A stretch of 32,000 bases of DNA from Candidatus Altimarinota bacterium (GTDB taxonomy: Bacteria; Patescibacteriota; Gracilibacteria; UBA1369): assembly GCA_041659405.1 (NCBI GenBank), contig JBAZYK010000002.1, forward strand, positions 1-32,000, written 5' to 3'. The number at the start of each line of letters is the position of its first letter. Position 1 is the first letter of the stretch. Positions 285-25,299 of this stretch are shown here, one piece after another. The notes under the pieces are model-generated. The model made no database searches. It was not told the DNA's origin and saw only the letters and a program-made list of their open reading frames with translations. Position numbers and translations under genes: made by a program.

Positions 285-371
285 TGGTGGGCGGGGAGAG
301 ACTTGAACTCTCACTCCATTGCTGGAATGCGATTTTGAGTCGCACGCGTCTGCCAGTTCCGCCACTCGCCC
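285..371 (-). tRNA. tRNA-Leu (anticodon CAA), type II with long variable arm, CCA encoded
   Basis: The reverse complement folds as GGGCGAG-TG-GCG-GAACTGGCAGA-CGC-G-TGCGA-CTCAAAA-TCGCA-TTCCAGCAATGGAGT-GAGAG-TTCAAGT-CTCTC-CCCGCCC-A-CCA, 87 nt. Anticodon loop is C-T-CAA-A-A. The 15-nt variable arm has a TCCA/TGGA stem and the T-loop is TTCAAGT. There is a single A6:C67 mismatch in the acceptor stem. Confidence 0.9.
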
Positions 372-5210: not shown

Positions 5211-6251
5211 ATGAGCAAACTAAAACTAACCGATGTCATTTCGTTAAGAACTCTGCAGAAAATTCAGGATAGTTTCGCTGATGCCGCCGGAATGCCGGTA
5301 TCATTGCGCGATCTTGATAACGAACTAATCACCAACATCAGCAATAAAACTAATTTATGGAGAGTTATCGAAACAATCCCGGAAATGAAAGCGCTCTGGA
5401 ATGAAAAAAACCTTGAAGCACTTGAAGAAAGCGTCAAAACCGGAGAAGTAATTATTTATGAAAGACATGCTGAAACCTATACATTCGCTGTCCCGGTGAC
5501 CGTTAATGGCAGAAGTTTAGCCTATTTTATTGGAGGTTTAGTCAGATTCGGAAATCCGAATATAGAACTATGCAAAAAAGAAGCTGAATTATTAAGAATA
5601 AGCCTTGATGAATTTTTAGATCTATATTTGCAGGTGCCGTTAATAACCAGAAAAAGACTGGAAGCTGCCGGCTATCTTTTAAAAACAATTGCCAATACCA
5701 TTTCGAACCTGGAAATAGAATCTACTCAGGCAAAAGCCGAAACTAAGGCCATAATTCAAGATCATGAAATGCTTAAAAAGGAAATTGCCCATAAAAATCA
5801 GCTTTTAAATGAGCATAGCGTAAAATATCAAACACTTTTTCATGAGGTTCAGGATGGCATTTTTACGGTAGATATGGAAGGGAAAATACTTGATGTAAAT
5901 CCGGCGGGAGCAGCAATGCTTGGCCATAAAGTAAATGAGACTATTGGGACGTATACCCAAAATTATTACGTCCACCTTGCCGACAAAAAAAAATATTTAG
6001 ATAGTATTACCAGGTTTGAACACATCCAGAATTTTTATCCTGAGTTAAGAATAAAAGGAGGAGGAACGATAATTGTAGAGCTAAGCGCAGTCCTTATGAA
6101 GGACAAAAACGGCAAAAACATTGGAATACAAGGAATATTCCGTGATATAAGCTGTAGGAAACATCAAAAATTGGAAGATAACAGCCAAAACCATGTCACT
6201 GAACAGCAAACTATCAAATCAGCTCAAAACCACCAAGGGGCATCTAAATAA
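5211..6251 (+). CDS. PocR-like sensory domain + coiled coil + PAS domain protein, no recognisable output domain
   Basis: The N-terminus LRTLQKIQDSFADAAGMPVSLRDLDNELIT ... AVPVTVNGRSLAYFIGG resembles the PocR sensor domain but lacks its usual Cys residues. C-terminal PAS: YQTLFHEVQDGIFTVDMEGKILDVNPAGAAMLGH ... IGIQGIFRDIS. Confidence 0.6.
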   Translation: MSKLKLTDVISLRTLQKIQDSFADAAGMPVSLRDLDNELITNISNKTNLWRVIETIPEMKALWNEKNLEALEESVKTGEVIIYERHAETYTFAVPVTVNGRSLAYFIGGLVRFGNPNIELCKKEAELLRISLDEFLDLYLQVPLITRKRLEAAGYLLKTIANTISNLEIESTQAKAETKAIIQDHEMLKKEIAHKNQLLNEHSVKYQTLFHEVQDGIFTVDMEGKILDVNPAGAAMLGHKVNETIGTYTQNYYVHLADKKKYLDSITRFEHIQNFYPELRIKGGGTIIVELSAVLMKDKNGKNIGIQGIFRDISCRKHQKLEDNSQNHVTEQQTIKSAQNHQGASK

Positions 6252-8232
6252 GCTGCAAGGACTCGGTATTGAAACAATTAAAGACCTGCTGTTGTATTTC
6301 CCCAGAGTTTACGAAGATCGCAGTCTTTACACTTCAATTGCTGAACTTAGAACCGACGAAATTAACAATATTAGAGGTACGCTAAGTAACCTGTTTTTTC
6401 GCAAAACAAGAGTTGGTAAATGTCTGATGAAAGGGCGAATAACCGATCAAACGGGCTCAGTCGAAGTCATCTGGTTTAATCAGCCATACCTGCAAAGAAT
6501 CCTTAAAAATGGCCAACAGATAGTCGTTTCCGGAAAAGCAAAATATAACCAAGGCAAATTAAGTCTTTTGGGCCCGTCGTTTGAACCTGTAAAAAAAGAG
6601 CAAACACACGTGGGAATAATCATACCGGTTTATCATGAAACAGAAGGAATTAATTCTAAATGGCTGCGTGAAAAAATAAAGCCACTATTAAAAGAATGGA
6701 AAAGTTTTTTCAGCGAGTATCTGCCGGAGGATATAATCGAAAAATATCAATTAATGAGCTACTCAAATGCAATCGAGATTGTTCATTTTCCCAAAGACGA
6801 AGAAACACTTAATGAAGCCAAGAAACGCCTGAGCTTTGATGAGTTATTTTTACTCCAACTCAAAGCTCTTCAAAAAAAATGGCATTGGCAAAATATTGCC
6901 GAGCACGAAAAAAAGCAGATAGAGAAGGATCCGGTAATTGCTGATTTCATCAAGAATTTGCCTTATGAATTAACCAACGCCCAAGTACGAAGTTTGGAAG
7001 AAATCCTCTTCGATCTTCAAAAGCCATATCCAATGTCCAGGCTCTTGCAAGGGGATGTAGGCTCGGGAAAAACCGTTATAGCAGCCATTGCCGCACTTAA
7101 TGTTTTAAAAGCCGGCTTCCAGGTTGCAATCATGGCTCCAACCGAAATCCTGGCCAAACAACATTATCTGACAATTTATAAATTTCTAAAAAATCTAAAT
7201 TTTAATATTCAATTCATTGCAGGGAGTACACCGGACGGAATCAAAGAAGAAATAACTCAGAATTTGGCGTTAGGTACAATCGACATAGTCATTGGCACAC
7301 ATTCGTTAATACAGGAAAATATTCGTTTCAAAAAGCTGGGTTTAGCTGTAATTGATGAGCAGCATCGCTTTGGCGTAAAACAGAGAGAAATTCTAAAAAA
7401 TCACAACAGTCCACATCTTTTAAGTCTTTCCGCCACACCAATTCCACGAACCCTGGCCATGACCATTTATGGGGATCAGGATCTTTCAATCATTGACGAA
7501 ATGCCAAAAGGAAGGCAAGAAATCATCACCCGCATCGTTCCGGAAAATAAGCGCATGGACGCCTATCGCTGGATAGAAGATCAAGTTAAGAAGGGACGTC
7601 AGGCTTTTATTATTTGTCCATTAATTGATGAATCTGATGTACTTGAGGTTAAATCGGCTATCCAGGAATTTGAATATTTAAAAGAAGCAGTTTTTCCACA
7701 ACTTAAAATGGGATTGCTCCACGGAAAAATGAAACCAAAAGACAAAGAAGAAATCATGAATTTATTTTCCTTAAACAAAATTAATATTTTGGTTTCTACT
7801 TCGGTTATTGAAGTTGGAATCGATGTTCCCAATGCCAGCATTATGGTTATAGAAGGCTCTGAACGTTTTGGGTTGTCACAATTACATCAATTTAGAGGAA
7901 GAGTAGGTCGTGGAAACCATCAATCATACTGTTTTCTTTTCACTAAAAGCAGATCGGAAAATGGGGGAAACAGACTACAGGCAATGGTTAAACACACCAG
8001 CGGTTTTAAATTGGCCGAAATTGATTTAAGTTTAAGAGGGCCGGGCGAAATTTATGGCGTAAAACAAAGCGGCATTCCTGACCTAAAAATGGCCTCACTC
8101 AGCGATTCTGCAACCATTTACATTGCCCGTGAAGCTGCGCAAAATATAATTGATAAAGATCCTCAATTAAAAAACTATCCAAAACTAAAGGAAAAACTGG
8201 ATAAACTCCAGGAAGTTTTTGTGAACGATTAA
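6193..8232 (+). CDS. recG: ATP-dependent DNA helicase RecG
   Basis: N-terminal LQGLGIETIKDLLLYFPRVYEDR followed by a wedge domain. Helicase motifs: LLQGDVGSGKT (I), VIDEQHRFG (II/DEQH), SATPIPRT (III), QLHQFRGRVGRG (VI). Confidence 0.95.
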   Translation: MSLNSKLSNQLKTTKGHLNKLQGLGIETIKDLLLYFPRVYEDRSLYTSIAELRTDEINNIRGTLSNLFFRKTRVGKCLMKGRITDQTGSVEVIWFNQPYLQRILKNGQQIVVSGKAKYNQGKLSLLGPSFEPVKKEQTHVGIIIPVYHETEGINSKWLREKIKPLLKEWKSFFSEYLPEDIIEKYQLMSYSNAIEIVHFPKDEETLNEAKKRLSFDELFLLQLKALQKKWHWQNIAEHEKKQIEKDPVIADFIKNLPYELTNAQVRSLEEILFDLQKPYPMSRLLQGDVGSGKTVIAAIAALNVLKAGFQVAIMAPTEILAKQHYLTIYKFLKNLNFNIQFIAGSTPDGIKEEITQNLALGTIDIVIGTHSLIQENIRFKKLGLAVIDEQHRFGVKQREILKNHNSPHLLSLSATPIPRTLAMTIYGDQDLSIIDEMPKGRQEIITRIVPENKRMDAYRWIEDQVKKGRQAFIICPLIDESDVLEVKSAIQEFEYLKEAVFPQLKMGLLHGKMKPKDKEEIMNLFSLNKINILVSTSVIEVGIDVPNASIMVIEGSERFGLSQLHQFRGRVGRGNHQSYCFLFTKSRSENGGNRLQAMVKHTSGFKLAEIDLSLRGPGEIYGVKQSGIPDLKMASLSDSATIYIAREAAQNIIDKDPQLKNYPKLKEKLDKLQEVFVND

Positions 8233-13449: not shown

Positions 13450-16400
13450 ATGGGAGGCGACGCAAACAAGCCAAAAGGAAAAATCGAAAATGCAGAAAGG
13501 GCCAAGGATCAAAGAGAAATCACCCCCTCAGACGCAAGTAAGCAGGAACGAGCTTCCGTGGCGATTGATGTTACAAAGGGGAAATCTGAAAAAGAGATTG
13601 CTGCTAGGCTTGAAGAACACAAAGAAAAGGGCTCAGAAACATTAAGTACAATCAAATCAATAAATGTCTCAAAAGAGACAAAAGAGCAGTTGGAAGCAAT
13701 TAAACTACTTAAAGTTATAAGTTACGTTGTTTTTACTAAACTTTTTAATAAAGGGCTTAAATTCAAAGACGTAAAAGAATTATCATCCCTAACAAATGTT
13801 TCTACAAATTTAACAACAGAACTGGATAGCAATGAAAAAACAGCTTTTGAAAAATTAAAAGAAATTGCCGAAAACTCTAATTCAATCCTTTTTAAGGAAT
13901 TCACGCAAACAACGGAAAATACATTTAATTGGAGTTCATTTATTGAAGATGCACACGCACAATTCCAAGCCGTTGCATTTAAACCATCAATGCATGCACC
14001 GGAAACTGTGCCTTTAAAACCAACTGAAGAAAGTAAAAGTCCAGAAAAAGCCTTCCACGAAAGGGCCTTTGATTGGATCAAGGAAAACCCAGGTAAAACA
14101 GCACTCATAACCGCAGGAGTATTCATTGCCGGTTATGGCCTTTATGAATATTTCTCATCAGATGAGAATAAAGATGAAAAAAAAGAAGGAAGTAATATGA
14201 ATAAATATTTATTGGGAGGAGGTTTAGCATTATCAGGATTGGTTTTGGGAGGAATTTTAGGAAAAGATAAAGTTTTGGATTGGTTTAAGGAACATGAATG
14301 GATTTCAGATGAAAAGAAAGAAAAATTCCTGGCCTATTGGAACGCAGGAGAAAGGCTAAAAGCAATCGAAACATTATTTGAAAGTCCGGATCCAAACTGG
14401 GAAAAAGAAAAACAAATTGCCGAAAAAATTTCAAAAGAAACAGGTAAAAAAGTATCCGCACTTACTCTTAGTTCGATAGCAAATCTAAAATATGATGATT
14501 TTAGAGGAATGTCCGATGAAGTAAAAAAACTGGCAAGCTCATTACTGAAAACGGGTGGATTGAGTTTTCTTTCCAAATTGGTTGAAGAAAGCCCTATTGT
14601 AGTGCAAGAAGCAAAAGTCATAAAAGATTATTTAGCAAAAAAACAGGATAAAATTAAAGCATTGAACCTACCTGAAAACGTCACTGTACTAGAGGTATTG
14701 GGCAAATTGACTGAAATTCATGTCGAAGTTATCCCACAACCAGAAGAGGAAAAAAGCGTGATTGGAAAGGCGGGAAAAGCAGCAGGAATTGTCTTCGTAG
14801 AAGGAAAAGAGAAAGTTAGTGGGTTTTTCCAGGAAAGCTATGACGCAATCAAAAAAGAATTTGATGATATCCCTGAAATACAAGAAATTTTAAAAAAATA
14901 CGATAATGGAGAAGCCACTCTCCACCCTTATAATTTCATTACAGAACTTTTTAACGCCTGTACTAAAAATAAAGTGGATATTGTTTTAGGTATGGGAAAA
15001 GTTGCACTTTACCGTGGCGGAAAATTTATTTTCATTTCAAGTTACGAAACTTTATATAACACCGCAGTAGCTTTTGTAAAATCGCCAGGCATAAGTGCCC
15101 CAGTTCAAGAATATCTGATAGGTGCAACTCCATTTATTGCAGTTGGTAGTGCTATTGGAGGAATTATCAATTCGGTCCAAGGACATAGTTTTGTTGCCGG
15201 TGCCTTTAGGGGAGCCGCAAAAGGAGCGATTTTTCCTGTCACAATCGCAACTGAAACTGGAAAATTTATAACAAGAGGACCACAAAGAATTTATCGAACA
15301 GCGAAAGGAATGGAATATTCTGTAAAAGAAACATTTAGTTCCGAAGCAGGGAAACTGGCAATAATTGAAGAGGAAGCCAGATTCTATGCTAAAATTGCTA
15401 ACGGCTATGACGATTTAATCGTAAACAAAGATGGATTATCTATCATCAATCCAAAACGCTGGTATGCAAAATTAAGCAAAGCCCGACTTGAAGAGCTTCG
15501 CTTCGAATACATGAAAAAGTTTGCTATTGCCTACAACAAATTAAACAAAGGACCAGCACTAAGTATTGAAAAACTTAACGATACGGCAGAAATAAAAGAT
15601 GCCAGACAGAAGATATATGATCTTTTAAAAGATGCAGAAGCTAAGGATAAATTGAAGTCAACAGCGGCAAAAACAACTCCGGTTTTACCCCCAGAAGAAC
15701 CAAAACATCTTGGCTCAGAAGGCCCTAGTGGTCCTGATCAAAAGCATAAATATAAATATTTCAATGAAGAGGTTGAGCTACAACAAAAAAATATCGAAGC
15801 AAAAGCTGGCGAAATCGCAAAAACTGAAACACCTCCGACAGATCCTGCAGAACTGCAGAAATGGAATGATACAAACTGGAATAAAGCCATCAAAGCGCTT
15901 TGTGAAGAAAAGCTGCTTACTCCAACGCCAGTTCAAGGCAAAAAAGATGTTTATCGCTTTCAAAATAAAGAAATTACAATTCCAAAATCCGAAATTGAGG
16001 CAAAGATGAAGACTTCCGGAATATCCGAAATAGAGGCAACTAAAGCGCTTTGTTATGAAAAAGCTTTAGCTCACGTCACAGTCCAGGAAGTTAAAATTGT
16101 TAACGGCGAATATCAATACAAAATTAATGGAGAATGGGTCACACCAGATGATCCTAAAAATCCGGTTAAAGCCGCTGAAATTAAAGAAAAGTGGATGAAC
16201 GAAATGCAAAAGAAAGGTGTGAATTTTGATTTTCAGAAATTTGCCGGTGAAGCAAAATACTTCAAATATTTCTCTGCATTCGAAAAAGTTCTAGGTACCG
16301 CAGCTGCAGTTGGAATATTTTATCACCTCTACAGTGCACCAGATAAGAAAAAAGCCGTAGCGGAAACAACCGCAGGCCTAGCCACATTTATCACTGGAGC

Positions 16401-17361
16401 AAAATTGACTGAATGGAAAATAGGTAAGCACTTCAAAAATCCGATAGCAAAAGGAGTCATCGACATGATGGGTGGAGTTGCATTTGCCATGGGTTTCACC
16501 GAACCAATTTCAAAATTAGTTGATGATTTTATTGATGTTTTACCTGCCGGATATGGAGTTTCAAAAGAAGTGGCCGAAATAATGGAAAAAGCGGCAGCGG
16601 GCTCAATTGTTAGAACAGCTACTTTAAGTCTTGAAAAAGGAATCTTAAGATCAGCGGTTGAAAAAGGAGCAACAAAACTTGGATTCAAGGGAATAGAAAG
16701 AGTATTCGAGAAAAAAATTGAGAGTACGTTTCTCAAGAAAATAATGACGTTTAGCGCAGAAAAAGGATTTGGTAAAATCTTAAAAATGCTAGGCTGGAGA
16801 GGCGCAACCACCATAGCCCTGCTTGCCGACGACGCAACGGTAATAGGCGTTCTAGACGACGTAATCGCTTTAGGGTTTATTGTTTGGATGGGCATCGATA
16901 TCGTCGAAATTGTGATGTTGATGAGGAATGCATACAAAGTAAAAGAGCAAATGGCACAAAGAACAGGAAAAGAAATCACTGAATTTAAACCTGAACACGG
17001 CAAAAGCGAAGCTCTTATTCAAAAAGAACTGGCCAAATATGGTAAAACCATAAGCCAAATTCACGAATTGAGTGAAGACGATCTTTTCGCAATTTTAAAA
17101 TCCATTGATGAACCGGTAACATTCAAAATCAAACGAGCGGGAGTAGCCGGATATGAATCCTGGACATTAACTAAAGGTGAAGCAAGCGGAATTGCTATTT
17201 TTGACGACGCAGGAGGCAAAATTGCAGAAATCGAAGATAAAGATGCGGCGAAAATCGACAAGGCCGTTAAGGAAATGGAAGAGAAAGCACAAAAGGAAGG
17301 CAAAACCGGCAAAGTTGATGCTCCTTCTGAAGGCCAAACTCCAGCTGCCAAAGCCGCTTAA
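13450..17361 (+). CDS. Giant hypothetical polytopic membrane protein, 1303 aa, no recognisable domain
   Basis: K/E-rich N-terminal region of about 200 aa. Hydrophobic segment pairs near aa 216-272 (ALITAGVFIAGYGLY, LLGGGLALSGLVLGGILG), near aa 555-602 (LIGATPFIAVGSAIGGIINSV, FVAGAFRGAAKGAIFPVTIA), and a cluster near aa 947-1158 (VLGTAAAVGIFYHLY, GVIDMMGGVAFAMGF, VIGVLDDVIALGFIVWMGIDIVEIVML). Degenerate tandem repeats near aa 767-923. Confidence 0.8.
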   Translation: MGGDANKPKGKIENAERAKDQREITPSDASKQERASVAIDVTKGKSEKEIAARLEEHKEKGSETLSTIKSINVSKETKEQLEAIKLLKVISYVVFTKLFNKGLKFKDVKELSSLTNVSTNLTTELDSNEKTAFEKLKEIAENSNSILFKEFTQTTENTFNWSSFIEDAHAQFQAVAFKPSMHAPETVPLKPTEESKSPEKAFHERAFDWIKENPGKTALITAGVFIAGYGLYEYFSSDENKDEKKEGSNMNKYLLGGGLALSGLVLGGILGKDKVLDWFKEHEWISDEKKEKFLAYWNAGERLKAIETLFESPDPNWEKEKQIAEKISKETGKKVSALTLSSIANLKYDDFRGMSDEVKKLASSLLKTGGLSFLSKLVEESPIVVQEAKVIKDYLAKKQDKIKALNLPENVTVLEVLGKLTEIHVEVIPQPEEEKSVIGKAGKAAGIVFVEGKEKVSGFFQESYDAIKKEFDDIPEIQEILKKYDNGEATLHPYNFITELFNACTKNKVDIVLGMGKVALYRGGKFIFISSYETLYNTAVAFVKSPGISAPVQEYLIGATPFIAVGSAIGGIINSVQGHSFVAGAFRGAAKGAIFPVTIATETGKFITRGPQRIYRTAKGMEYSVKETFSSEAGKLAIIEEEARFYAKIANGYDDLIVNKDGLSIINPKRWYAKLSKARLEELRFEYMKKFAIAYNKLNKGPALSIEKLNDTAEIKDARQKIYDLLKDAEAKDKLKSTAAKTTPVLPPEEPKHLGSEGPSGPDQKHKYKYFNEEVELQQKNIEAKAGEIAKTETPPTDPAELQKWNDTNWNKAIKALCEEKLLTPTPVQGKKDVYRFQNKEITIPKSEIEAKMKTSGISEIEATKALCYEKALAHVTVQEVKIVNGEYQYKINGEWVTPDDPKNPVKAAEIKEKWMNEMQKKGVNFDFQKFAGEAKYFKYFSAFEKVLGTAAAVGIFYHLYSAPDKKKAVAETTAGLATFITGAKLTEWKIGKHFKNPIAKGVIDMMGGVAFAMGFTEPISKLVDDFIDVLPAGYGVSKEVAEIMEKAAAGSIVRTATLSLEKGILRSAVEKGATKLGFKGIERVFEKKIESTFLKKIMTFSAEKGFGKILKMLGWRGATTIALLADDATVIGVLDDVIALGFIVWMGIDIVEIVMLMRNAYKVKEQMAQRTGKEITEFKPEHGKSEALIQKELAKYGKTISQIHELSEDDLFAILKSIDEPVTFKIKRAGVAGYESWTLTKGEASGIAIFDDAGGKIAEIEDKDAAKIDKAVKEMEEKAQKEGKTGKVDAPSEGQTPAAKAA

Positions 17362-18941
17362 AGATACTTCACCATATACGTTCCTTCAAGTTCGTAGCCT
17401 AATTTTTTATAGTATTCGCGAACGCCGATTCCGCTGATTACGGCGAGTTTTTTATAACCGTTCTTTTTGCTGATCTCTTCGGCCTGAAGCATCATCCGTC
17501 TACCCAAACCGATGTGCTGGGAAGCATTATTTTCTCTTCTGGAAATCTCAACCTGCTCGCCATAAGTGTGAACTTCACGGACAAGCGCCGCGCCTTCCAG
17601 CTCTTTAATAAAGTGTTTTTTGCCCTTCAAGCTGTAAGAAGAAAAACGAAGTCTAAGCAAAGCACAAATTTTATCCTTCTTCAGATCATCATAAGTCACA
17701 AAAAATTCCTGTCCTTCCGCGGCTTCCATTGGCTTAATATTCAAGGTCAGATCATTAAAATTCACCTGTTCATCTTTAATTTCCCGACAACGGATACAAC
17801 GACATTCAAGTCCCCTCTTTTTCATTTCGACATCAACAAATTGGCGAAGATTGGACATTTTTGATCCACCCAAAATGGTTGGAGCCGGAATATCCCTGTA
17901 CATTCTTGTCACACGACAATACTCGGGAATTACTCCCGAAATTTTCACCATCAACTCTATCAATTCCGGATCAGAATAAGGCCTATGTTTACCTTCTTTA
18001 TGGATCTTTTCCAATTGTGACCATGGCACAACCATAGTTGGATAAATCTTCATCCAATCAGGACGATAAGCGGGATTAGCAAACATTTCCACCATATCCG
18101 CATAATCAATTTCCGGCGTACTGCCATAAAGATTCGGCATCATGTGGCAATTAATTTTATAAGCCGCATCACGCATAAGCTGAATAGCATGCTTAGTTTC
18201 CGCTATTCCATGGTCGCGCTTATTCATCTTCAAAACTCGATCATTCAAACTCTGAACGCCAATTTCAATTTTGGTACAACCAAGATTTCGCAGACGAATC
18301 AGCTCTTTTTCATCAATGTGATCAGGACGGGTTTCAAAAGACAAGCCAATACAGCGATGCTCAGCCGTTTCATTAATTTTTTGAGCTTCAGCCAAACTAC
18401 GTGATTTTTTTTGAGGATAATTCAAAGCATTAAAAATTCCGCGAGTAAATTCAGTTTGATAACGGTGCGGATAAAAAGAAAAAGTTCCACCGGAAACAAT
18501 CAAATCAATCTTATCGGTTTTATGACCGGTTTTATCCAGACTTTTTAAACGATTGAGTGTCTGTTTATATGGATCAAAATCATTTAAAATAGCCCGCATT
18601 ATAGCCGGTTCATTCGACAAATAACTCTTTGGCATTTCAGGTTCTGTAGGACAAAAAATACAGCGACCGGGACAAGGATAAGCCTTGGTTATAACGGTAA
18701 TTGAAGCAATGCCGGAAAGTGACCTTACTCCCCTTTTTCGCAAAAACTTTAAAAACTTTTCATCATCCGGCAACTCCCCTTCTTTTACAAGGTCACGATA
18801 GACCTGAATAAGCTCCGAGTTTGTCGGGAAACTTTTAACATAGTGGCTCGAAAATTTGCTCTTCAACTCATGCAAGAACTTAGCATCACGTATTTTGCGT
18901 TTATAAGCCTCTTTTACCAGTTGTTTTAGACCTTCCGACAT
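17358..18941 (-). CDS. elp3: Elp3-family radical-SAM/GNAT enzyme (tRNA U34 carboxymethylation type)
   Basis: 527 aa. Radical-SAM cluster motif in KAYPCPGRCIFCP, followed by a TIM-barrel-like region (IDLIVSGGTFSF, GLSFETRPD, CTKIEIGVQS). C-terminal GNAT (QHIGLGRRMMLQAEEISKKNGYKKLAVISGIGVREYYKKLGY). Domain order and length match archaeal and Dehalococcoides-type Elp3. Confidence 0.85.
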   Translation of the reverse strand: MSEGLKQLVKEAYKRKIRDAKFLHELKSKFSSHYVKSFPTNSELIQVYRDLVKEGELPDDEKFLKFLRKRGVRSLSGIASITVITKAYPCPGRCIFCPTEPEMPKSYLSNEPAIMRAILNDFDPYKQTLNRLKSLDKTGHKTDKIDLIVSGGTFSFYPHRYQTEFTRGIFNALNYPQKKSRSLAEAQKINETAEHRCIGLSFETRPDHIDEKELIRLRNLGCTKIEIGVQSLNDRVLKMNKRDHGIAETKHAIQLMRDAAYKINCHMMPNLYGSTPEIDYADMVEMFANPAYRPDWMKIYPTMVVPWSQLEKIHKEGKHRPYSDPELIELMVKISGVIPEYCRVTRMYRDIPAPTILGGSKMSNLRQFVDVEMKKRGLECRCIRCREIKDEQVNFNDLTLNIKPMEAAEGQEFFVTYDDLKKDKICALLRLRFSSYSLKGKKHFIKELEGAALVREVHTYGEQVEISRRENNASQHIGLGRRMMLQAEEISKKNGYKKLAVISGIGVREYYKKLGYELEGTYMVKYL

Positions 18942-18968
18942 ATCGTTGTCTTTTTGAGGTAATAACGG

Positions 18969-18974
18969 TATAAA
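18969..18974 (+). promoter_or_regulatory. Candidate -10 box (TATAAA) immediately upstream of the Trm9-like gene
   Basis: TATAAA ends 5 nt before ATG 18980, within a 38-bp divergent spacer. This implies a leaderless or near-leaderless mRNA if it is used. Confidence 0.25.
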
Positions 18975-18979
18975 CTAGA

Positions 18980-19759
18980 ATGAGCCATTGGCCAAAAACA
19001 AGTCATATCGCTCGCCCATTATACGAAAAAATGAGAGAAAATAAAGCAAAAAAGCTCCTTCAGGGCGTTAAAGAAACTTACAATACCATTGCGGAAGAGT
19101 TTTCTGACACACGCCATACCAACTGGGAAGAATTTGAGTTTTTTGCCAAATACCTTGAACCTGACTCGGAAATATTGGATTTAGGATGCGGAAACGGCCG
19201 CCTTATTAAATTTCTGGATCAAAAGACAGTGGGCTTTGAAAAACCGGCCTATCATTATGTTGGAGTTGATAACAGTGAAAACCTGCTTAAAAAAGCGCAA
19301 ACAATCCACGCCAAACAAACCTTTATTTTGGGCGACCAACTGGCGATTCCAATGGCCGAAAACACCATCGACCTTCTTTTCAACATCGCCGCTTTTCATC
19401 ATCTTCCAGACAAGAAATCACAACTTCAAGGTCTGGAAGAAATGAAACGAGTACTCAAAAAAGATGGCTATTTGTTTATTACCGTTTGGAATCTTTGGCA
19501 AAAACGCTACATCAAACCTATTATCAAAACCCTGCTTAAGTGTATCTTTACTTTAGGATATTACCGCTTTAATGACCTTTTTATTCCCTGGGGGAAAAGT
19601 AAAATTCCACGCTATTATCATGCCTTTTTACCATCAGAATTTGAAAAACGGATACAGGAATCAGGACTGGAAATCGTTGAGATTTTTGCAGTAAAAAACG
19701 GCCAAAAAGTACACCTGAAAGAAAGCAATAATATTTGTTTGATAGCGCGAAAAATATGA
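18980..19759 (+). CDS. Class I SAM-dependent methyltransferase resembling the Trm9/ALKBH8 tRNA (cm5U34) methyltransferase domain
   Basis: YNTIAEEFSDTRHTNW (compare ALKBH8 YEEIAGHFSSTRHTPW and Trm9 YNEIAPHFSQTRYKPW, recalled from memory). Motif I ILDLGCGNGRL. FNIAAFHHL...LKKDGYLFITVWNLWQ (compare ISIAVIHHF...GGKALIYVWAMEQ). LFIPWGK and PRYYHAF (compare VLVPW and HRYYHVF). Confidence 0.7.
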   Translation: MSHWPKTSHIARPLYEKMRENKAKKLLQGVKETYNTIAEEFSDTRHTNWEEFEFFAKYLEPDSEILDLGCGNGRLIKFLDQKTVGFEKPAYHYVGVDNSENLLKKAQTIHAKQTFILGDQLAIPMAENTIDLLFNIAAFHHLPDKKSQLQGLEEMKRVLKKDGYLFITVWNLWQKRYIKPIIKTLLKCIFTLGYYRFNDLFIPWGKSKIPRYYHAFLPSEFEKRIQESGLEIVEIFAVKNGQKVHLKESNNICLIARKI

Positions 19760-20520
19760 AAGAACGCATCACCATCATGAATGTCCCTTTTGATCGAGTA
19801 ACAGCCAAAGAGGCGCTGGCTATTACGTTAGAAAAACTCGACGGAAACAAACAAACCACAAACGGAAAACACCAACCTTTTTTTATTGCGACTCCAAATC
19901 CGGAAATGCTTTTGGCGGCCCGAAAAAATGAAAGGTTTTTAAAAATACTTCAAACCGAAACTGATCTAAATATTCCCGATGGAATTGGTATTATTTTCGC
20001 CTCCAAATTAAGTAAAAATTCCTTGCCACAGCGAGTTACAGGAACGGACTTAATGCAGGCCATTTGCCATTTTGCCCCCAAAGGAACAAAAATTTTTCTT
20101 TTAGGTGCAGCCGAAGGTGTAGCTGAAAAAGTTAAAGCAAAACTTCAAAAAAAATATCCCCAAATACAGATAGTTGGAACACACAGCGGATCACCCGCCC
20201 CCGAAGAAGCAGAAAAAATCAGGAATCTTATTCAAAAAAGTGAAGCTGACATTCTATTTATAGCCTTTGGGGCGCCAAAACAGGAACTTTGGTTATCCGA
20301 AAATCTTTCTCATTTAAAAAATCTTAAAATAGCCATGGGCGTTGGCGGAGCTTTTGATTTTGTTGCCGAAATTAGAAAAAGAGCACCCCGCCTTATGCGT
20401 AAACTTGGCCTTGAATGGCTCTTTAGACTTGTAATTGAACCAAGCAGGTTCAAAAGAATCTACAACGCTACAATCAAATTTCCTTTGCTATTTTTAAAGC
20501 AAAAAATCACCGGAAAATAA
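19756..20520 (+). CDS. WecB/TagA/CpsF-family glycosyltransferase (UDP-ManNAc(A) transferase type)
   Basis: IMNVPFDRVTAKEALA, FIATPNPEMLL, NIPDGIGI, GAPKQELW, MGVGGAFDF, RAPRLMRKLGLEWLFRLVIEPSRFKR. I prefer the start at ATG 19756, which forms an ATGA overlap with the upstream TGA stop. The ORF opens at 19735. Confidence 0.85.
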   Translation: MKERITIMNVPFDRVTAKEALAITLEKLDGNKQTTNGKHQPFFIATPNPEMLLAARKNERFLKILQTETDLNIPDGIGIIFASKLSKNSLPQRVTGTDLMQAICHFAPKGTKIFLLGAAEGVAEKVKAKLQKKYPQIQIVGTHSGSPAPEEAEKIRNLIQKSEADILFIAFGAPKQELWLSENLSHLKNLKIAMGVGGAFDFVAEIRKRAPRLMRKLGLEWLFRLVIEPSRFKRIYNATIKFPLLFLKQKITGK

Positions 20521-20531
20521 TAGCACTAAAT

Positions 20532-21797
20532 TTATTTGTCAGATCTTAAGGCTTCAATCGGTTGCAAACCGGCTGCCTTTCTGGCAGGCCCAACTCCAAA
20601 GACTAAACCGAATCCCAATGTTACAATAAAACCGATTAAAACCGAATAGGCTGAAACCACCATATTCAATTGCGTACCGGTCTGTGCCGCCACAAAATTG
20701 ATCAGGATACTCATCAAGAATCCAAGAAAAATTCCCAAAAGGCCCCCTAAAAGCGTTATTGTTAAAGCCTCGATCAAAAACTGAAAAAGAATATCTTTTC
20801 GGCGTGCCCCAATAGCCTTACGTAATCCAATCTCAGCAATTCTTTCCGTAACACTCACATACATAATATTCATAATTCCCACTCCCCCAACAATTAACGA
20901 GATCGACGCAATTGCCCCAAAAAGCAATGATACGGCAGAGAAAACCACCCCAATAATGTTCATGGCATCTTCCGAAGATTGCACCGTAAAATCATCTTTC
21001 TTAAGATCATTCCCCCGTATTCCATGCTGCCTACGCAAAAATCTGCGAATGTCATCCGAAGTTATATCGGTCAAAGTCGCATCCTTTAATTGAGCCACAA
21101 AATAAGTCATGTAATCATAGCCCAAAAGCGCTTTCTGCGCCGTTTTAATGGGAATATAAACATATTCATCATAATTTTGAAACATAGCGGCTCCACGCTT
21201 TTCCATTACTCCAATCACCTTAAAATTCAAATTCCGCACCCGTATTGTTTTACCAATCGGATTTTCACTGCCAAAAAGATCTTCTTTAATTGTTTGACCG
21301 ATGACAACAACCTTAGCCAAACTATCATTTTCAATATCATTAAAAAATCTACCTACCTGAAGTTTGCTTTTATCGATATTCATAAAACTTGCCATCGTTC
21401 CGGTTATCATGGAACTTCTGGATTTATCTCTATAAACAAGTTTCTCTTGGGCAAAAACAGCCCCATAACTATCTTTAACATTGGGAATCTTTTTTACTCC
21501 ATCCACATCCGCTATTTTTAAAGTTTTAATTTGAATACCGGTAGCAATAGCCGCACCTGAAGCCGCCATATCTGTATTTGGAACTTTCACCTCGACAAAA
21601 ACCGTATCAGAACCAAAAGAGGCCAACTGATCCCTAATAAATCCCTCGGCAGCATTGGAAATCCCTAAAACCAGAATTAAAGTTGAAATACCAATCACAA
21701 TACCCAAAACCGAAAGAATTGTTCTCATACGATTTTTTTTGAGAGCATCAAACGATAAACCAAACAAATCCTGAATGCGTAATGAACGTTTTTTCAT
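20532..21797 (-). CDS. MacB-type ABC transporter permease (MacB periplasmic core domain + FtsX domain), paralogue 2
   Basis: N-terminal TM helix (ILSVLGIVIGISTLILVL), a large extracytoplasmic domain, then a C-terminal FtsX region with the VTERIAEIGLRKAIGARRKDILFQFLIEA motif and three TM helices. Ends ...PIEALRSDK. Confidence 0.85.
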   Translation of the reverse strand: MKKRSLRIQDLFGLSFDALKKNRMRTILSVLGIVIGISTLILVLGISNAAEGFIRDQLASFGSDTVFVEVKVPNTDMAASGAAIATGIQIKTLKIADVDGVKKIPNVKDSYGAVFAQEKLVYRDKSRSSMITGTMASFMNIDKSKLQVGRFFNDIENDSLAKVVVIGQTIKEDLFGSENPIGKTIRVRNLNFKVIGVMEKRGAAMFQNYDEYVYIPIKTAQKALLGYDYMTYFVAQLKDATLTDITSDDIRRFLRRQHGIRGNDLKKDDFTVQSSEDAMNIIGVVFSAVSLLFGAIASISLIVGGVGIMNIMYVSVTERIAEIGLRKAIGARRKDILFQFLIEALTITLLGGLLGIFLGFLMSILINFVAAQTGTQLNMVVSAYSVLIGFIVTLGFGLVFGVGPARKAAGLQPIEALRSDK

Positions 21798-21805
21798 AAA
21801 ATTAA

Positions 21806-23050
21806 TTATTCGTAACGCAAAGCTTCAATTGCCGGCAATTTGGAAGCCTTGGAAGCTGGATAATAACCAAAAATAATTCCAATGACCTGACAAACCAAAA
21901 CCCCAACAACAATCGCAGTAATAGAAAAAGATAAATCCCAATAATATCCCATACTTCTAATCACCAGTGCAATGATGAATGTGATCAACATACCAAAGAC
22001 AATCCCAATCATTCCACCACAAGTCGTCACAAAAGCCGCTTCAATCAAAAACTGATTACGGATATGAAAAGGTTTGGCCCCAATTGCTTTACGCAAACCG
22101 ATTTCACGGGTTCTTTCTGTTACTGAAACCAACATTACATTCATGATCCCAATTCCACCAACCAACAAAGAAATAGCCGCAACCGCAGCCAACACAAACT
22201 TAATAATATTGGTGATATTTTGAATAGTCATGAGCGCTTGATTGGCACTAACAACCGTAAAATCATCATCATCCGGATTTTTTATGTGATGACGAATGCG
22301 CAAAGTCCTTTGCATATCGGCAATAACCTGATCAACATTTTCATCAGAATCAACTTTACCACGAATTATTCCAACATAATTTTCACCAAGCATAATCTTT
22401 TGTGCAGTACTAACAGGTATAAAAACCTGATTATCAAGATTTTGAAAACCGACTACTCCCTTTGGCTGAAAAACACCAATTACATGGAATTTTTCATTAC
22501 CAACCCGAATAGTTTTACCAATTGGATCTTCCAAACCAAATAAATCAGCCCTAACTTTGCTCCCCAAAACCACCACCTTTGAAAGGTTTTTTTCTTCTTG
22601 AGCATTTAAAAAACGTCCAAGATCGATTTTTTGATCAATTACTTTAGGATACTGAGCCATCACTCCAAAAAAAGGTACATTCACACTTTTATTAAAATAA
22701 GAAACCTGCTCCTGCCCACGAGCATAAGCAGAAATCGCCGTTAGATGCTGAATCGCATTTGGACCAGTCACCATTGCCACCGCATCTTCATACTTTAAAG
22801 TTGTAATCACAACGCCCAAAACCGCCGCCGGTGGCCCATTATCCCCACCTTTTCCCGGCAAAACTCCCACTAAATTTGTTCCCAAACTTTGAATTTGATT
22901 ATAAATAAGACTTTGAGCCCCACCACCTGCCGAAACAATAATAATCACAGCAGAAACGCCAATAATAATACCAAGCATCGTCATCAATGATCGACTTTTA
23001 TTAGTCAAAAGGCCCGTCCACGCTAGTTTTATGACATTTAATAAGTCCAT
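21806..23050 (-). CDS. MacB-type ABC transporter permease, paralogue 1
   Basis: Same architecture as paralogue 2: LMTMLGIIIGVSAVIIIV, VTERTREIGLRKAIGAKPFHIRNQFLIEA, ...AIEALRYE. Confidence 0.85.
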   Translation of the reverse strand: MDLLNVIKLAWTGLLTNKSRSLMTMLGIIIGVSAVIIIVSAGGGAQSLIYNQIQSLGTNLVGVLPGKGGDNGPPAAVLGVVITTLKYEDAVAMVTGPNAIQHLTAISAYARGQEQVSYFNKSVNVPFFGVMAQYPKVIDQKIDLGRFLNAQEEKNLSKVVVLGSKVRADLFGLEDPIGKTIRVGNEKFHVIGVFQPKGVVGFQNLDNQVFIPVSTAQKIMLGENYVGIIRGKVDSDENVDQVIADMQRTLRIRHHIKNPDDDDFTVVSANQALMTIQNITNIIKFVLAAVAAISLLVGGIGIMNVMLVSVTERTREIGLRKAIGAKPFHIRNQFLIEAAFVTTCGGMIGIVFGMLITFIIALVIRSMGYYWDLSFSITAIVVGVLVCQVIGIIFGYYPASKASKLPAIEALRYE

Positions 23051-23052
23051 TG

Positions 23053-23748
23053 TTAATTTAATACATCAGAAAGAACCTGACCATCACGAAGAGTGATAAT
23101 ACGCTTTGCACTCCGCGCAATATCCACCTCATGAGTCACAAGAATAATTGTTTTACCTTCGGCGTTAAGCTTTCTAAAAAGCTCAATGATTTCATGTGAA
23201 GCCTGAGTATCAAGATTACCGGTTGGTTCATCAGCCAAAATCAACTTTGGATTAGTTATTAAAGCTCGAGCAATAGCCACGCGTTGCTGTTGACCACCTG
23301 AAAGCTCATTCGGTTTATGAGACATGCGATCACCAAGTCCAACTCTCTTTAAAGCCTCTTCCGCCCTCTGCTTTTGTTCAAAAAATGGAACACCCTGATA
23401 AATCAGCGGCAAACGAACATTGTCTATAGCGGTAGTTCTTGGCAACAAATTAAAAGCCTGAAACACGAATCCAACTTTTTCACTGCGAATATCAGCCAAC
23501 TCATCCTCTTCATAAACTGTTGTATTGCGGGAATCAAAAACATAGTCACCTGTACTTGGAGAATCCAAAAAACCCAAAATATGCATCAAAGTTGACTTGC
23601 CTGAGCCGGATTGCCCAATGATCGCGACATAGTCACCTTCATTGATAGAAAACGAAACCCCTCGAAGTGCCTGTGTAACAATGCTATTTTCCCCCTCACC
23701 CATAAGGTATTCTTTACGAATATCCCGCAGTGAAATCAAAACACTCAT
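23053..23748 (-). CDS. ABC transporter ATP-binding protein (MacB/LolD-like)
   Basis: Walker A GQSGSGKST, Q-loop, signature LSGGQQQRVAIARAL, Walker B ILADEPTGNLD, H-loop VTHE. Confidence 0.95.
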   Translation of the reverse strand: MSVLISLRDIRKEYLMGEGENSIVTQALRGVSFSINEGDYVAIIGQSGSGKSTLMHILGFLDSPSTGDYVFDSRNTTVYEEDELADIRSEKVGFVFQAFNLLPRTTAIDNVRLPLIYQGVPFFEQKQRAEEALKRVGLGDRMSHKPNELSGGQQQRVAIARALITNPKLILADEPTGNLDTQASHEIIELFRKLNAEGKTIILVTHEVDIARSAKRIITLRDGQVLSDVLN

Positions 23749-23760
23749 AAATATAATTAA

Positions 23761-25299
23761 TTAATTCTTGGTAAACGTCACTACCTGCTCACCTTCATTC
23801 AAACCCGAAACAATTTCTACATTTTCATCACCCTGAATTCCTGTAGCCACATTGCGTTTTTCAACCTGTTCCTTGTCGGAAGAATCTTTTTTCAAAACCT
23901 GAACATAAGCCTGATTACCTTCATACTGGATTGCACGAACAGGAACCATTAAAGCATCCATCTTCGTCTTTGTCTGAATGGTTAAATTTGCCGTCATACC
24001 CGGCTTAATTTGTTCAGATGGATTTTGAATCAAGACCTTCACTTCATAATAAATTACACCTTGAACAACCGTTTCAGCCGGTGAAACTTCAATAACATTA
24101 CCTGTAAATTCGCTGCTTATATCCAAAGCATCAAAAGTCATCTTTACACTTTCATTTTTTTGAATTTTGGCGATATCCGCTTCAGAAACCAAAGCTTTTA
24201 CATTCAATCCATCACTATCCATCACAACAAAAGCCTGTGCTGAAGAAACGACTTCACCGGGATTATAATTGATTTTTGCAATCACGCCATTCGCAGGTGC
24301 CTTTAATTCTGTCTGACTAACCCTGTACTGGGCCAAATGAACTGAATCCCAAGCCTGATCAACTTGCGCCTTTAATGACGCCACATCAACGTTACGGGGC
24401 GTTGCCTGAGTCAAATTTAATTGTTCTTGAGCACTCTGAACGCCAATTCCAGCTTTATTCACGGTAGAATTAAGATCGTTGAGCTGTCTATTATAATCAG
24501 CTGCCGCCTTCTGATAATTATTTTGAGCCTGCTGCAAAGCAAGTTGAGCTTGTGTTAATGCACTTTGTGCCTCATCCATTGATCTTTGATTTTGCATTGA
24601 TTGTTGCTGAGCCTGACCGGCTAAATAATCATTAATTGGCTGAAACAAATCTCCAAAACCGGTTGCTGAACCTGACATTGATGTCGAATCTGGAAACATT
24701 GAAGCCGTGGAAGAAACTTGCCTTCCGGTTGTGTCATTATTAGCCAAGAAAGCCACTCCTTGCAAAGCGGAATTATAACTTTGACTGGCTTGATCAAGAG
24801 AAATCCTGGCAGTTTCCAAATTACTTCTTGCAATCGATATTAATGAATTTTGATTCTGAAGAGCACTATTATAATCCTGTTTAGCAAGATCAACTTTAAA
24901 TTTACCCAAATTTACTTCTTCGTTTCTTGGACCGGAAAGAGCTTTTGCCAAATTAGCCTGAGAAATATGTAAAGCTGAAGTTTGAGCCTGAAGTCCAATT
25001 GCCAAATCGCCACCCTCCAATTTTGCGAGTACGTCACCTAATTTCACTCTATCACCTTCATGCACTAAAACCGCATCAAGAGTCCCCATAATAGGAAACT
25101 GCAGTTGATAACGAACCTGTGACTCAGTTGTGCCAGTAACACTAACAGTCTGTGAAATAGTTCCCTTGGCCACTTGGGCTGTAACATATTCAGGCCCCTT
25201 TGTTCCTGTAAAAAAACGAGAAACAATGAACCCAACAATCACCAAGCCAATTGCTACATAAAGGACAATTCTTAAAATACGGCCATTTTTTACTGTCAT
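23761..25299 (-). CDS. HlyD/MacA-type membrane-fusion (periplasmic adaptor) protein with an enlarged Q/N/S-rich hairpin region
   Basis: N-terminal TM anchor (ILRIVLYVAIGLVIVGFIV). Lipoyl-like motifs (GTLDAVLVHEGDRVKLGDVLAKL; APANGVIAKINYNPGEVV). Beta-barrel and MP domains (GMTANLTIQT..., VPVRAIQYEGNQAYVQV). A central low-complexity coiled coil of about 115 aa. Confidence 0.8.
   Translation of the reverse strand: MTVKNGRILRIVLYVAIGLVIVGFIVSRFFTGTKGPEYVTAQVAKGTISQTVSVTGTTESQVRYQLQFPIMGTLDAVLVHEGDRVKLGDVLAKLEGGDLAIGLQAQTSALHISQANLAKALSGPRNEEVNLGKFKVDLAKQDYNSALQNQNSLISIARSNLETARISLDQASQSYNSALQGVAFLANNDTTGRQVSSTASMFPDSTSMSGSATGFGDLFQPINDYLAGQAQQQSMQNQRSMDEAQSALTQAQLALQQAQNNYQKAAADYNRQLNDLNSTVNKAGIGVQSAQEQLNLTQATPRNVDVASLKAQVDQAWDSVHLAQYRVSQTELKAPANGVIAKINYNPGEVVSSAQAFVVMDSDGLNVKALVSEADIAKIQKNESVKMTFDALDISSEFTGNVIEVSPAETVVQGVIYYEVKVLIQNPSEQIKPGMTANLTIQTKTKMDALMVPVRAIQYEGNQAYVQVLKKDSSDKEQVEKRNVATGIQGDENVEIVSGLNEGEQVVTFTKN

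Follow-up and report, generated by a model that had tools for sequence, protein, structure and literature searches.

We analyzed a stretch of 32,000 nucleotides (hereafter the window) from a Candidatus Altimarinota bacterium (assembly GCA_041659405.1, contig JBAZYK010000002.1, positions 1 to 32,000), a member of the Patescibacteria or Candidate Phyla Radiation (CPR). The analysis concerns two divergent genes near its middle, one encoding an Elp3 homolog and the other a methyltransferase related to Trm9, which in eukaryotes act on the wobble uridine of tRNA (U34) to give 5-carboxymethyluridine (cm5U34) and then its methyl ester, 5-methoxycarbonylmethyluridine (mcm5U34). The two open reading frames (ORFs) lie exactly where an earlier note on this DNA, made from the letters alone, had placed them, divergent and separated by 38 bp. 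The two proteins have the NCBI accessions MFA5829077 and MFA5829078. The genetic code of the window is standard: recoding of UGA (code 25), a potential threat to the ORF calls, was ruled out, as TGA accounts for only 3 of the 25 gene stops (the others being TAA, 18, and TAG, 4) and the long ORFs are uninterrupted. The pair and the region between the two genes are organized as follows.

17358-18941, minus strand: elp3, 527 amino acids, ATG start and TAA stop; predicted radical S-adenosylmethionine (radical-SAM)/GNAT enzyme forming the carboxymethyl group of tRNA U34.
18980-19759, plus strand: trm9-like methyltransferase gene, 259 amino acids, ATG start and TGA stop; predicted class I SAM-dependent tRNA (cm5U34) carboxyl O-methyltransferase, with a probable start at 19031.
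18942-19030, between the two strands' genes: putative control region common to the two divergent genes, of 38 bp if the methyltransferase starts at its annotated ATG and of about 89 bp if it starts at Met18.

The start of the methyltransferase deserves a comment. In a comparison of 31 aligned homologs, 30 begin at the position of Met18 of the window protein, and the annotated ATG shares bases with a -10-like TAGAAT. We therefore think that the true start is probably at 19031, which would widen the intergenic gap to about 89 bp. The TAGAAT is part of a promoter-like element (TTGAGG-16-TAGAAT at 18954-18981, plus strand), identified as a consensus match only, and it is conceivable that elp3 and the methyltransferase gene are co-regulated from this shared region.

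To place the pair in a broader context, we scanned one genome per species with the 259-residue methyltransferase, which gave at least 474 stretches. All the counts of CPR loci given below refer to the best 80 of these, and every one of them comes from Patescibacteria or from unclassified metagenome-assembled genomes.

The 527-residue protein is a complete Elp3, with the iron-sulfur cysteines and the residues of the acetyl-CoA pocket intact. It scores 543.5 bits on the curated Elp3 model TIGR01211 (cutoff 350), with residues 8-527 aligned on model positions 2-522, and the identical protein is named Elp3 at NCBI. Its best matches in the PDB are the archaeal MinElp3 of Methanocaldococcus infernus (6ia8, E = 1e-119), DmcElp3 of Dehalococcoides mccartyi (5l7j, E = 6e-107), and the eukaryotic Elp3 proteins (E around 1e-99). 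The full Elp3 architecture described in the earlier note, i.e., a CPGRCIFC cluster (residues 90-97) followed by a C-terminal GNAT domain, is thus present in a protein that exceeds the cutoff of the family model. Three parts of the gene can be delimited.

18735-18941, minus strand: N-terminal basic extension, residues 1-69, with 16 Lys/Arg, which aligns with the N-terminus of MinElp3.
18651-18674, minus strand: radical-SAM [4Fe-4S] triad C90-x3-C94-x2-C97 (CPGRCIFC), a sequence motif.
17361-17744, minus strand: KAT/GNAT domain, approximately residues 400-527, with E456, H458, QHIGLG (475-480), and Y510.

The cysteines of the triad are nearly invariant: all 62 CPR Elp3 proteins aligned there have Cys at C90 and C94, and 62 out of 63 have it at C97. 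In the C-terminal domain, Pfam Acetyltransf_1 matches residues 475-516. The alignments with 6ia8 and 5l7j show that K144, K262, E456, and Y510 correspond to K150, K266, Q461, and Y517 of MinElp3, and to K77, K193, E386, and Y441 of DmcElp3. These positions are conserved in the CPR set, and mutants of the four MinElp3 residues have a strongly reduced acetyl-CoA hydrolysis (PMC6367351). The other trait of interest is the N-terminus. MinElp3 needs it to bind tRNA tightly, and DmcElp3 is devoid of it (PMC6367351). MinElp3 is the best solved relative of the window protein, and both have this long extension. More generally, the window Elp3 shares a long basic N-terminus with the archaeal and eukaryotic enzymes, unlike DmcElp3. 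The alignments of the CPR Elp3 proteins begin within the first 10 residues of the query in 53 of the 63 matches. With this extension, the CPR Elp3 may surpass DmcElp3 in activity as a bacterial model enzyme.

The public labels of the methyltransferase are either generic methyltransferase or UbiE, the latter given by JGI, even if the automated pipeline of JGI also tags several members of the family as TRM9. Searches with Pfam and NCBIfam retrieved only generic class I models (in Pfam, Methyltransf_11, Methyltransf_25, and Methyltransf_31). This result is uninformative, because the authentic Trm9 of Yarrowia likewise matches only generic Pfam models. We could reject an identity as UbiE/MenG: the protein scores 55.8 bits on NF001244 (cutoff 216) and 50.1 bits on TIGR01934 (cutoff 158). 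The class I Rossmann fold and motif I are common to UbiE/MenG and to the window protein, but UbiE matches the core only and not the lid that is typical of Trm9.

Several independent comparisons point to Trm9. Aligned as a single sequence to the solved Yarrowia Trm9 (5cm2), the window protein matches over residues 42-239 with a phmmer E-value of 2.5e-10, and the alignment includes every motif that the earlier note had given as typical of Trm9/ALKBH8. The pairs given by HMMER (window/5cm2) are sdTRhtnW/anTRYkpW, IAAFHHL/IAVIHHF, ITVWNLWQK/IYVWALEQK, IPW/VPW, and RYYHAF/RYYHLY. When a profile made from 32 members of the methyltransferase family was run against the PDB, 5cm2 came first and over its full length (E = 9e-21). 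The runners-up (3l8d, 1ve3, and 6uak) matched over the Rossmann core only and lack the HH, VW..Q, PW, and RYYH elements. In the other direction, we built a profile hidden Markov model from 20 fungal Trm9 proteins. The hhalign comparison of the two families covered the full length (205 columns), with a probability of 99.9% (E = 1.1e-34). On the fungal profile, the window protein scores 87.1 bits and the CPR family has a median of 83 bits, to be compared with 40.5 bits for the highest-scoring PDB chain that is not a Trm9. The motifs noticed initially are therefore real, aligned residue for residue with 5cm2 and well beyond what is expected by chance, and the profile searches that had been proposed as a check gave consistent answers for both proteins. 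The window methyltransferase is only 24% identical to fungal Trm9. An AlphaFold 2 model of the protein (pLDDT of 93.3) has a Rossmann topology, and 5cm2 has the best target-normalised TM-score in a Foldseek search of the PDB (0.80). The two proteins also differ: an additional helix (around residues 175-190) and a C-terminal hairpin are found in the window methyltransferase and missing in fungal Trm9. One structure that we had considered as evidence of an archaeal Trm9, 6f5z, was dropped from the analysis as it is Hvo_0019, another partner of Trm112. Overall, these comparisons support the view that the methyltransferase is a specific homolog of Trm9 and not a UbiE/SmtA-like enzyme.

The functional residues of Trm9 have been studied by mutagenesis in ScTrm9, where Ala mutants of R29, D72, H116, W145, W168, R241, Y243, and N271 abolish or cripple the activity and result in resistance to zymocin (PMC4678810). 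All eight have an equivalent in the window protein (respectively, R45, D67, H141, W170, W204, R211, Y213, and N251), and H140 and Q174 are also matched. Their positions in the window are the following.

19112-19114, plus strand: R45 (TR motif), equivalent to ScTrm9 R29 in the HMMER alignment to 5cm2; invariant in the family.
19178-19198, plus strand: SAM-binding motif I, D67-LGCGNG-73, invariant in the alignment; D67 is equivalent to ScTrm9 D72.
19397-19402, plus strand: H140-H141, equivalent to ScTrm9 H115-H116 by sequence alignment.
19487-19621, plus strand: substrate-binding lid with W170, Q174, W204, R211, Y212, Y213, and H214 (VWNLWQ...IPW...RYYH).
19730-19732, plus strand: N251, equivalent to ScTrm9 N271 in the hhalign comparison, where S-N-N-I of the window protein lies on K-D-N-W of Trm9.

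These residues cover the different parts of the active site. The D72 mutant of ScTrm9 loses SAM binding, R29 is proposed to position the carboxylate of cm5U, and N271 is proposed to recognize O2/N3 of the uracil (PMC4678810). The residues of the lid align with W145, Q149, W168, R241, and Y243 of ScTrm9, in a region where the competing PDB matches are unaligned. The eight Trm9-type residues are near-invariant across the 80 CPR loci. For example, the residue at the position of H141 is His in all the loci where Elp3 is found nearby (63/63) and in all those where it is not (12/12). At the position of N251, among the 39 Elp3-linked CPR loci aligned there, 33 have Asn and 5 have Asp, and Asn is found in the 11 aligned loci lacking Elp3 and in the 45 aligned proteins of the Dehalococcoides-type set described below.

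We then turned to the conservation of the gene pair, a check that the earlier note had put forward for its proposal. Linkage was scored within the flank fetched for each CPR locus, i.e., up to 10 kb. Elp3 was found in this flank in 63 of the 80 loci, and in most of them it is directly upstream of the methyltransferase gene and divergent. Elp3 lies 1-1.6 kb upstream in five of the linked loci, and the two genes are co-directional in one. The identity of the linked Elp3 proteins to that of the window ranges from 39% to 77%. Part of the adjacency is inherited, because most CPR loci share with the window a long-range synteny that takes in RecG at one end and GatB and CoaE at the opposite end. Yet, inherited synteny as the sole cause of the adjacency can be rejected. 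The pair is kept in four loci that have lost all other synteny (L062, L066, L074, and L079). A deep-branching CPR clade (its members being labelled Saccharibacteria, Campbellbacteria, and others) has the Elp3-methyltransferase pair without any other synteny shared with the window. The pair is also found in loci of Dehalococcoides type.

These last loci come from a search seeded with DmcElp3, which provided 80 metagenome loci (L081-L160), 61 of which are informative in that they have enough upstream DNA. In 49 of these 61, a Trm9-like gene lies upstream of Elp3, and always on the opposite strand. One locus (L081) encodes an Elp3 100% identical to DmcElp3 and has the Trm9-like gene upstream and divergent. 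The Elp3 proteins of this set are around 40% identical to that of the window, and no other gene is common to these loci and the window. Hence, among the linkages seen here, that between Elp3 and the Trm9-like methyltransferase alone is found in both of these unrelated bacterial phyla. These results lead us to revise two statements of the earlier note. First, it had described the Elp3 of Dehalococcoides as stand-alone, but a Trm9-like neighbor is present there as well and the pairing is peculiar neither to this genome nor to CPR bacteria. Second, it had regarded bacterial Elp3 as rare, and the literature calls DmcElp3 'a rare example' (PMC6367351), but our data indicate that it is not especially rare. 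The methyltransferase family is present in at least 474 species-representative stretches and Elp3 lies beside it in most of the 80 examined.

The Dehalococcoides-type loci have traits of their own. DmcElp3 is the only structurally characterized bacterial Elp3; like the window enzyme it stands alone, i.e., as a single protein, with a divergent Trm9-like gene upstream. It differs from the window locus in that the methyltransferase has an Asn instead of the Asp of motif I and is followed by a zinc-ribbon ORF, which is missing from the CPR loci. The change from Asp to Asn in motif I occurs in 49 out of 49 Dehalococcoides-type Trm9-like proteins (e.g., 9280-9960 of L081, minus strand), and the other active-site residues are kept. 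The zinc-ribbon ORF has about 74 codons (CPxC-X18-CWKC and a C-terminal helix) and comes right after the Trm9-like gene, in the same orientation, in 19 Dehalococcoides-type loci. Two examples can be given.

L081, 8417-8716, minus strand: zinc-ribbon ORF.
L119, 844-1068, minus strand: zinc-ribbon ORF.

This ORF nearly fits the published zinc-knuckle signature of Trm112, Pfam gives no Trm112 match, and tblastn of the CPR loci found no homolog of it. Its product may be analogous to the Trm112 activator.

Taken together, these data make it quite likely, in our opinion, that the pair represents a bacterial counterpart, reduced to two genes, of the Elongator-type pathway for the wobble uridine, in which Elp3 would make cm5U34 and the Trm9-like enzyme would convert it to mcm5U34. 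Archaeal Elp3 has been shown to make cm5U34 from acetyl-CoA by radical-SAM chemistry (PMC13315578, PMC7663514). By analogy, the stand-alone Elp3 of the window would use its basic N-terminus and its central cleft to bind tRNA, cleave SAM at the [4Fe-4S] cluster, and transfer the two-carbon unit of acetyl-CoA, delivered by the GNAT domain, to C5 of U34. The Trm9-like methyltransferase would then use SAM to methyl-esterify the carboxylate of cm5U. If the organism thiolates U34, the final product would be mcm5s2U34. The chemistry of the pathway, the activity of the methyltransferase without Trm112, and the nature of the target tRNAs are all inferred here. The only RNA gene in the window is a tRNA-Leu(CAA) (285-371, minus strand), which has a C34 and would therefore fall outside the substrates of the module.

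A number of observations weigh against this pathway and have to be considered. In eukaryotes, Trm9 needs Trm112. As the earlier note had remarked for the window, there is no sign of a Trm112-like partner: a motif screen, admittedly weak, identified no Trm112-like ORF in the window nor within 10 kb in the 80 CPR loci. Since eukaryotic Trm9 depends on this protein and none was found near the pair, either the methyltransferase is autonomous or its Trm112 partner is encoded elsewhere. On the structural side, the Foldseek search of the PDB ranks Trm9 third, after two uncharacterized methyltransferases. The tree of the methyltransferases is a neighbor-joining one rooted on fungal Trm9 only. DmcElp3 was found to be weakly active in vitro (PMC7663514).

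The same side of the balance includes the loci in which the pair is split. About 12 CPR loci have the methyltransferase and lack Elp3 in the available flank (at most 10 kb). They are L024, L027, L028, L032, L034, L049, L052, L060, L064, and L072, plus L054 and L073, and the upstream DNA available for three of them (L024, L034, and L052) is shorter than 1 kb. They retain the full signature of Trm9 residues. As they are essentially one clade, a single rearrangement is suggested. Either Elp3 was relocated in these genomes or the methyltransferase acts without Elp3.

The last of these unfavorable observations concerns the gene that follows the methyltransferase.

19756-20520, plus strand: glycosyltransferase of the WecG/TagA/CpsF family (Pfam PF03808, 202.7 bits), whose ATG overlaps the stop of the methyltransferase gene (ATGA, 19756-19759).

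A glycosyltransferase follows the methyltransferase in 67 of the 80 CPR loci, slightly more often than Elp3 is found near it, and the ATGA overlap suggests translational coupling between the two genes.

The least improbable alternative is that U34 is modified but that the product is different. The methyltransferase might act on another carboxylated nucleoside, as CmoM does when it turns uridine 5-oxyacetic acid (cmo5U) into its methyl ester (mcmo5U), or the product of Elp3 might end as cm5U or as the carbamoylmethyl derivative ncm5U, with the methyltransferase acting on another RNA. There are sub-threshold matches to NCBIfam CmoB, at around 22-23 bits, and the Asn found in place of Asp in motif I of all 49 Dehalococcoides-type methyltransferases is a hint of divergence. 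We nevertheless regard this alternative as improbable. The family profile has Trm9 as its top PDB match, with neither CmoM nor CmoB among the best 60 structures, the residues proposed to bind the carboxylate and the uracil of cm5U are all conserved, and the sole gene linked to the methyltransferase in both phyla is that of Elp3, the enzyme that forms cm5U.

It is very improbable, in our view, that the methyltransferase serves the TagA/WecG-like glycosyltransferase by acting on an envelope glycopolymer (e.g., by forming the methyl ester of a uronic acid), the adjacency of Elp3 being just an inherited gene order. Such a role would fit with the frequency and the overlap of the two genes, with the partial inheritance of the adjacency by synteny, and with around 10 loci that have the methyltransferase and the glycosyltransferase without Elp3 nearby. 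However, the glycosyltransferase is missing in the deep-branching CPR clade and in all 80 Dehalococcoides-type loci, including the 49 that have the Elp3-methyltransferase pair. Furthermore, among the eight Trm9 residues are the ones with a proposed role in reading the uracil ring and in stacking on the neighboring nucleotides, and all eight are equally conserved in the loci without Elp3, the single-clade distribution of which suggests one rearrangement. The glycosyltransferase is thus probably a passenger of the operon, outside the module.

The least credible alternative is that there is no functional coupling at all, the two genes being independent housekeeping neighbors and Elp3 perhaps having a non-tRNA role such as protein acetylation: the gene order from RecG to GatB/CoaE is generally conserved in this region of CPR genomes and Elp3 was once proposed to be a histone acetyltransferase, but the divergent arrangement recurs in the Dehalococcoides-type contigs with a distant Elp3 and no other common gene, and the two enzymes catalyze successive reactions in eukaryotes. 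In addition, tRNA triggers the acetyl-CoA hydrolysis of Elp3, whereas peptides do not (PMC6367351).

We thus favor the reading in which Elp3 and the Trm9-like enzyme act one after the other on U34. The pair then adds a bacterial member to a pathway that is already well known in eukaryotes, and does not amount to a new kind of system. Relative to the eukaryotic Elongator and Trm9-Trm112 (ALKBH8-TRMT112), both catalytic families are matched, with the radical-SAM and KAT domains and basic N-terminus of Elp3 and the eight residues of Trm9. The differences are the absence of the subunits Elp1, Elp2, Elp4, Elp5, and Elp6, the lack of a Trm112 detected nearby, and the organization as a compact divergent pair. 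In Archaea, for which the pathway has been proposed or in part demonstrated, the genes of Elp3 and Trm9 cluster in Sulfolobus solfataricus (PMC6144793, PMC5372719). Archaeal Trm9 has been reported from two orders only (Sulfolobales and Halobacteriales), and that of Haloferax has been described as a partner of Trm112 (PMC5372719). As for Bacteria, a specialist review states that no bacterial homologs of the methyltransferases that partner with Trm112 are detectable (PMC5372719). Our own searches of the literature, on Elp3 with CPR/Patescibacteria and on Trm9 with Dehalococcoides, retrieved no report of a bacterial Trm9, although the TRM9 tags of JGI show that automated annotation had already picked up the similarity.

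The usual route to xm5U34 in Bacteria is that of MnmE/MnmG(/MnmC), which relies on a GTPase and an FAD enzyme and uses glycine and methylene-tetrahydrofolate. It shares with Elp3/Trm9 the target, C5 of U34, and probably the decoding role, whereas the enzymes and the chemistry, based on radical SAM and acetyl-CoA in Elp3, are unrelated. Neither MnmE nor MnmG is encoded in the 32-kb window. Given the conservation of the pair in both CPR bacteria and Dehalococcoides, some bacteria probably make mcm5U, a modification attributed so far to eukaryotes and a few archaea and thought to be absent from Bacteria. A broader scenario can be sketched, although we hold it only tentatively and would not bet on it at even odds: in hundreds of species of Patescibacteria and in Dehalococcoidia, an autonomous, Trm112-free Elp3/Trm9 module would make mcm5U34 or mcm5s2U34 and replace MnmE/MnmG, and it would represent either an ancient minimal form of Elongator or the outcome of a transfer between domains.

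These results have practical consequences. The intact active sites and the conservation in two unrelated phyla lead to a concrete prediction, namely the presence of mcm5U34 in these bacteria. The pair offers a minimal two-protein system to reconstitute the conversion of cm5U to mcm5U, and a natural test of whether Trm9 can function without Trm112. Finally, the analysis corrects a widespread mis-annotation of these proteins as 'UbiE' or 'class I methyltransferase' in CPR genomes.

The remainder of the window encodes housekeeping functions (Obg, Pth, TyrRS, RecG, GatB, CoaE, and a signal peptidase) and an efflux cassette of MacB type. The gene that faces elp3 is an ORF of 1303 codons (13450-17361, plus strand), with a convergent overlap of 4 nt between the 3' ends of the two genes. 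It has no match in Pfam or NCBIfam, and only weak homologs (23-33% identity) were found, in seven related loci. Between TyrRS and RecG lies an ORF with PocR and PAS sensory domains (5211-6251, plus strand), which overlaps the RecG ORF (6193-8232, plus strand) by 59 nt. This protein recurs in just 7 of the 80 related loci. The efflux cassette (MacB-MacB-ABC ATPase-HlyD, 20532-25299, minus strand) is located between the glycosyltransferase and GatB. It is complete only in the closest relatives (L012, L020, and L038), and a truncated copy is found at the end of a short contig (L006). The gene order is otherwise conserved, and the cassette has the look of an insertion specific to this lineage.

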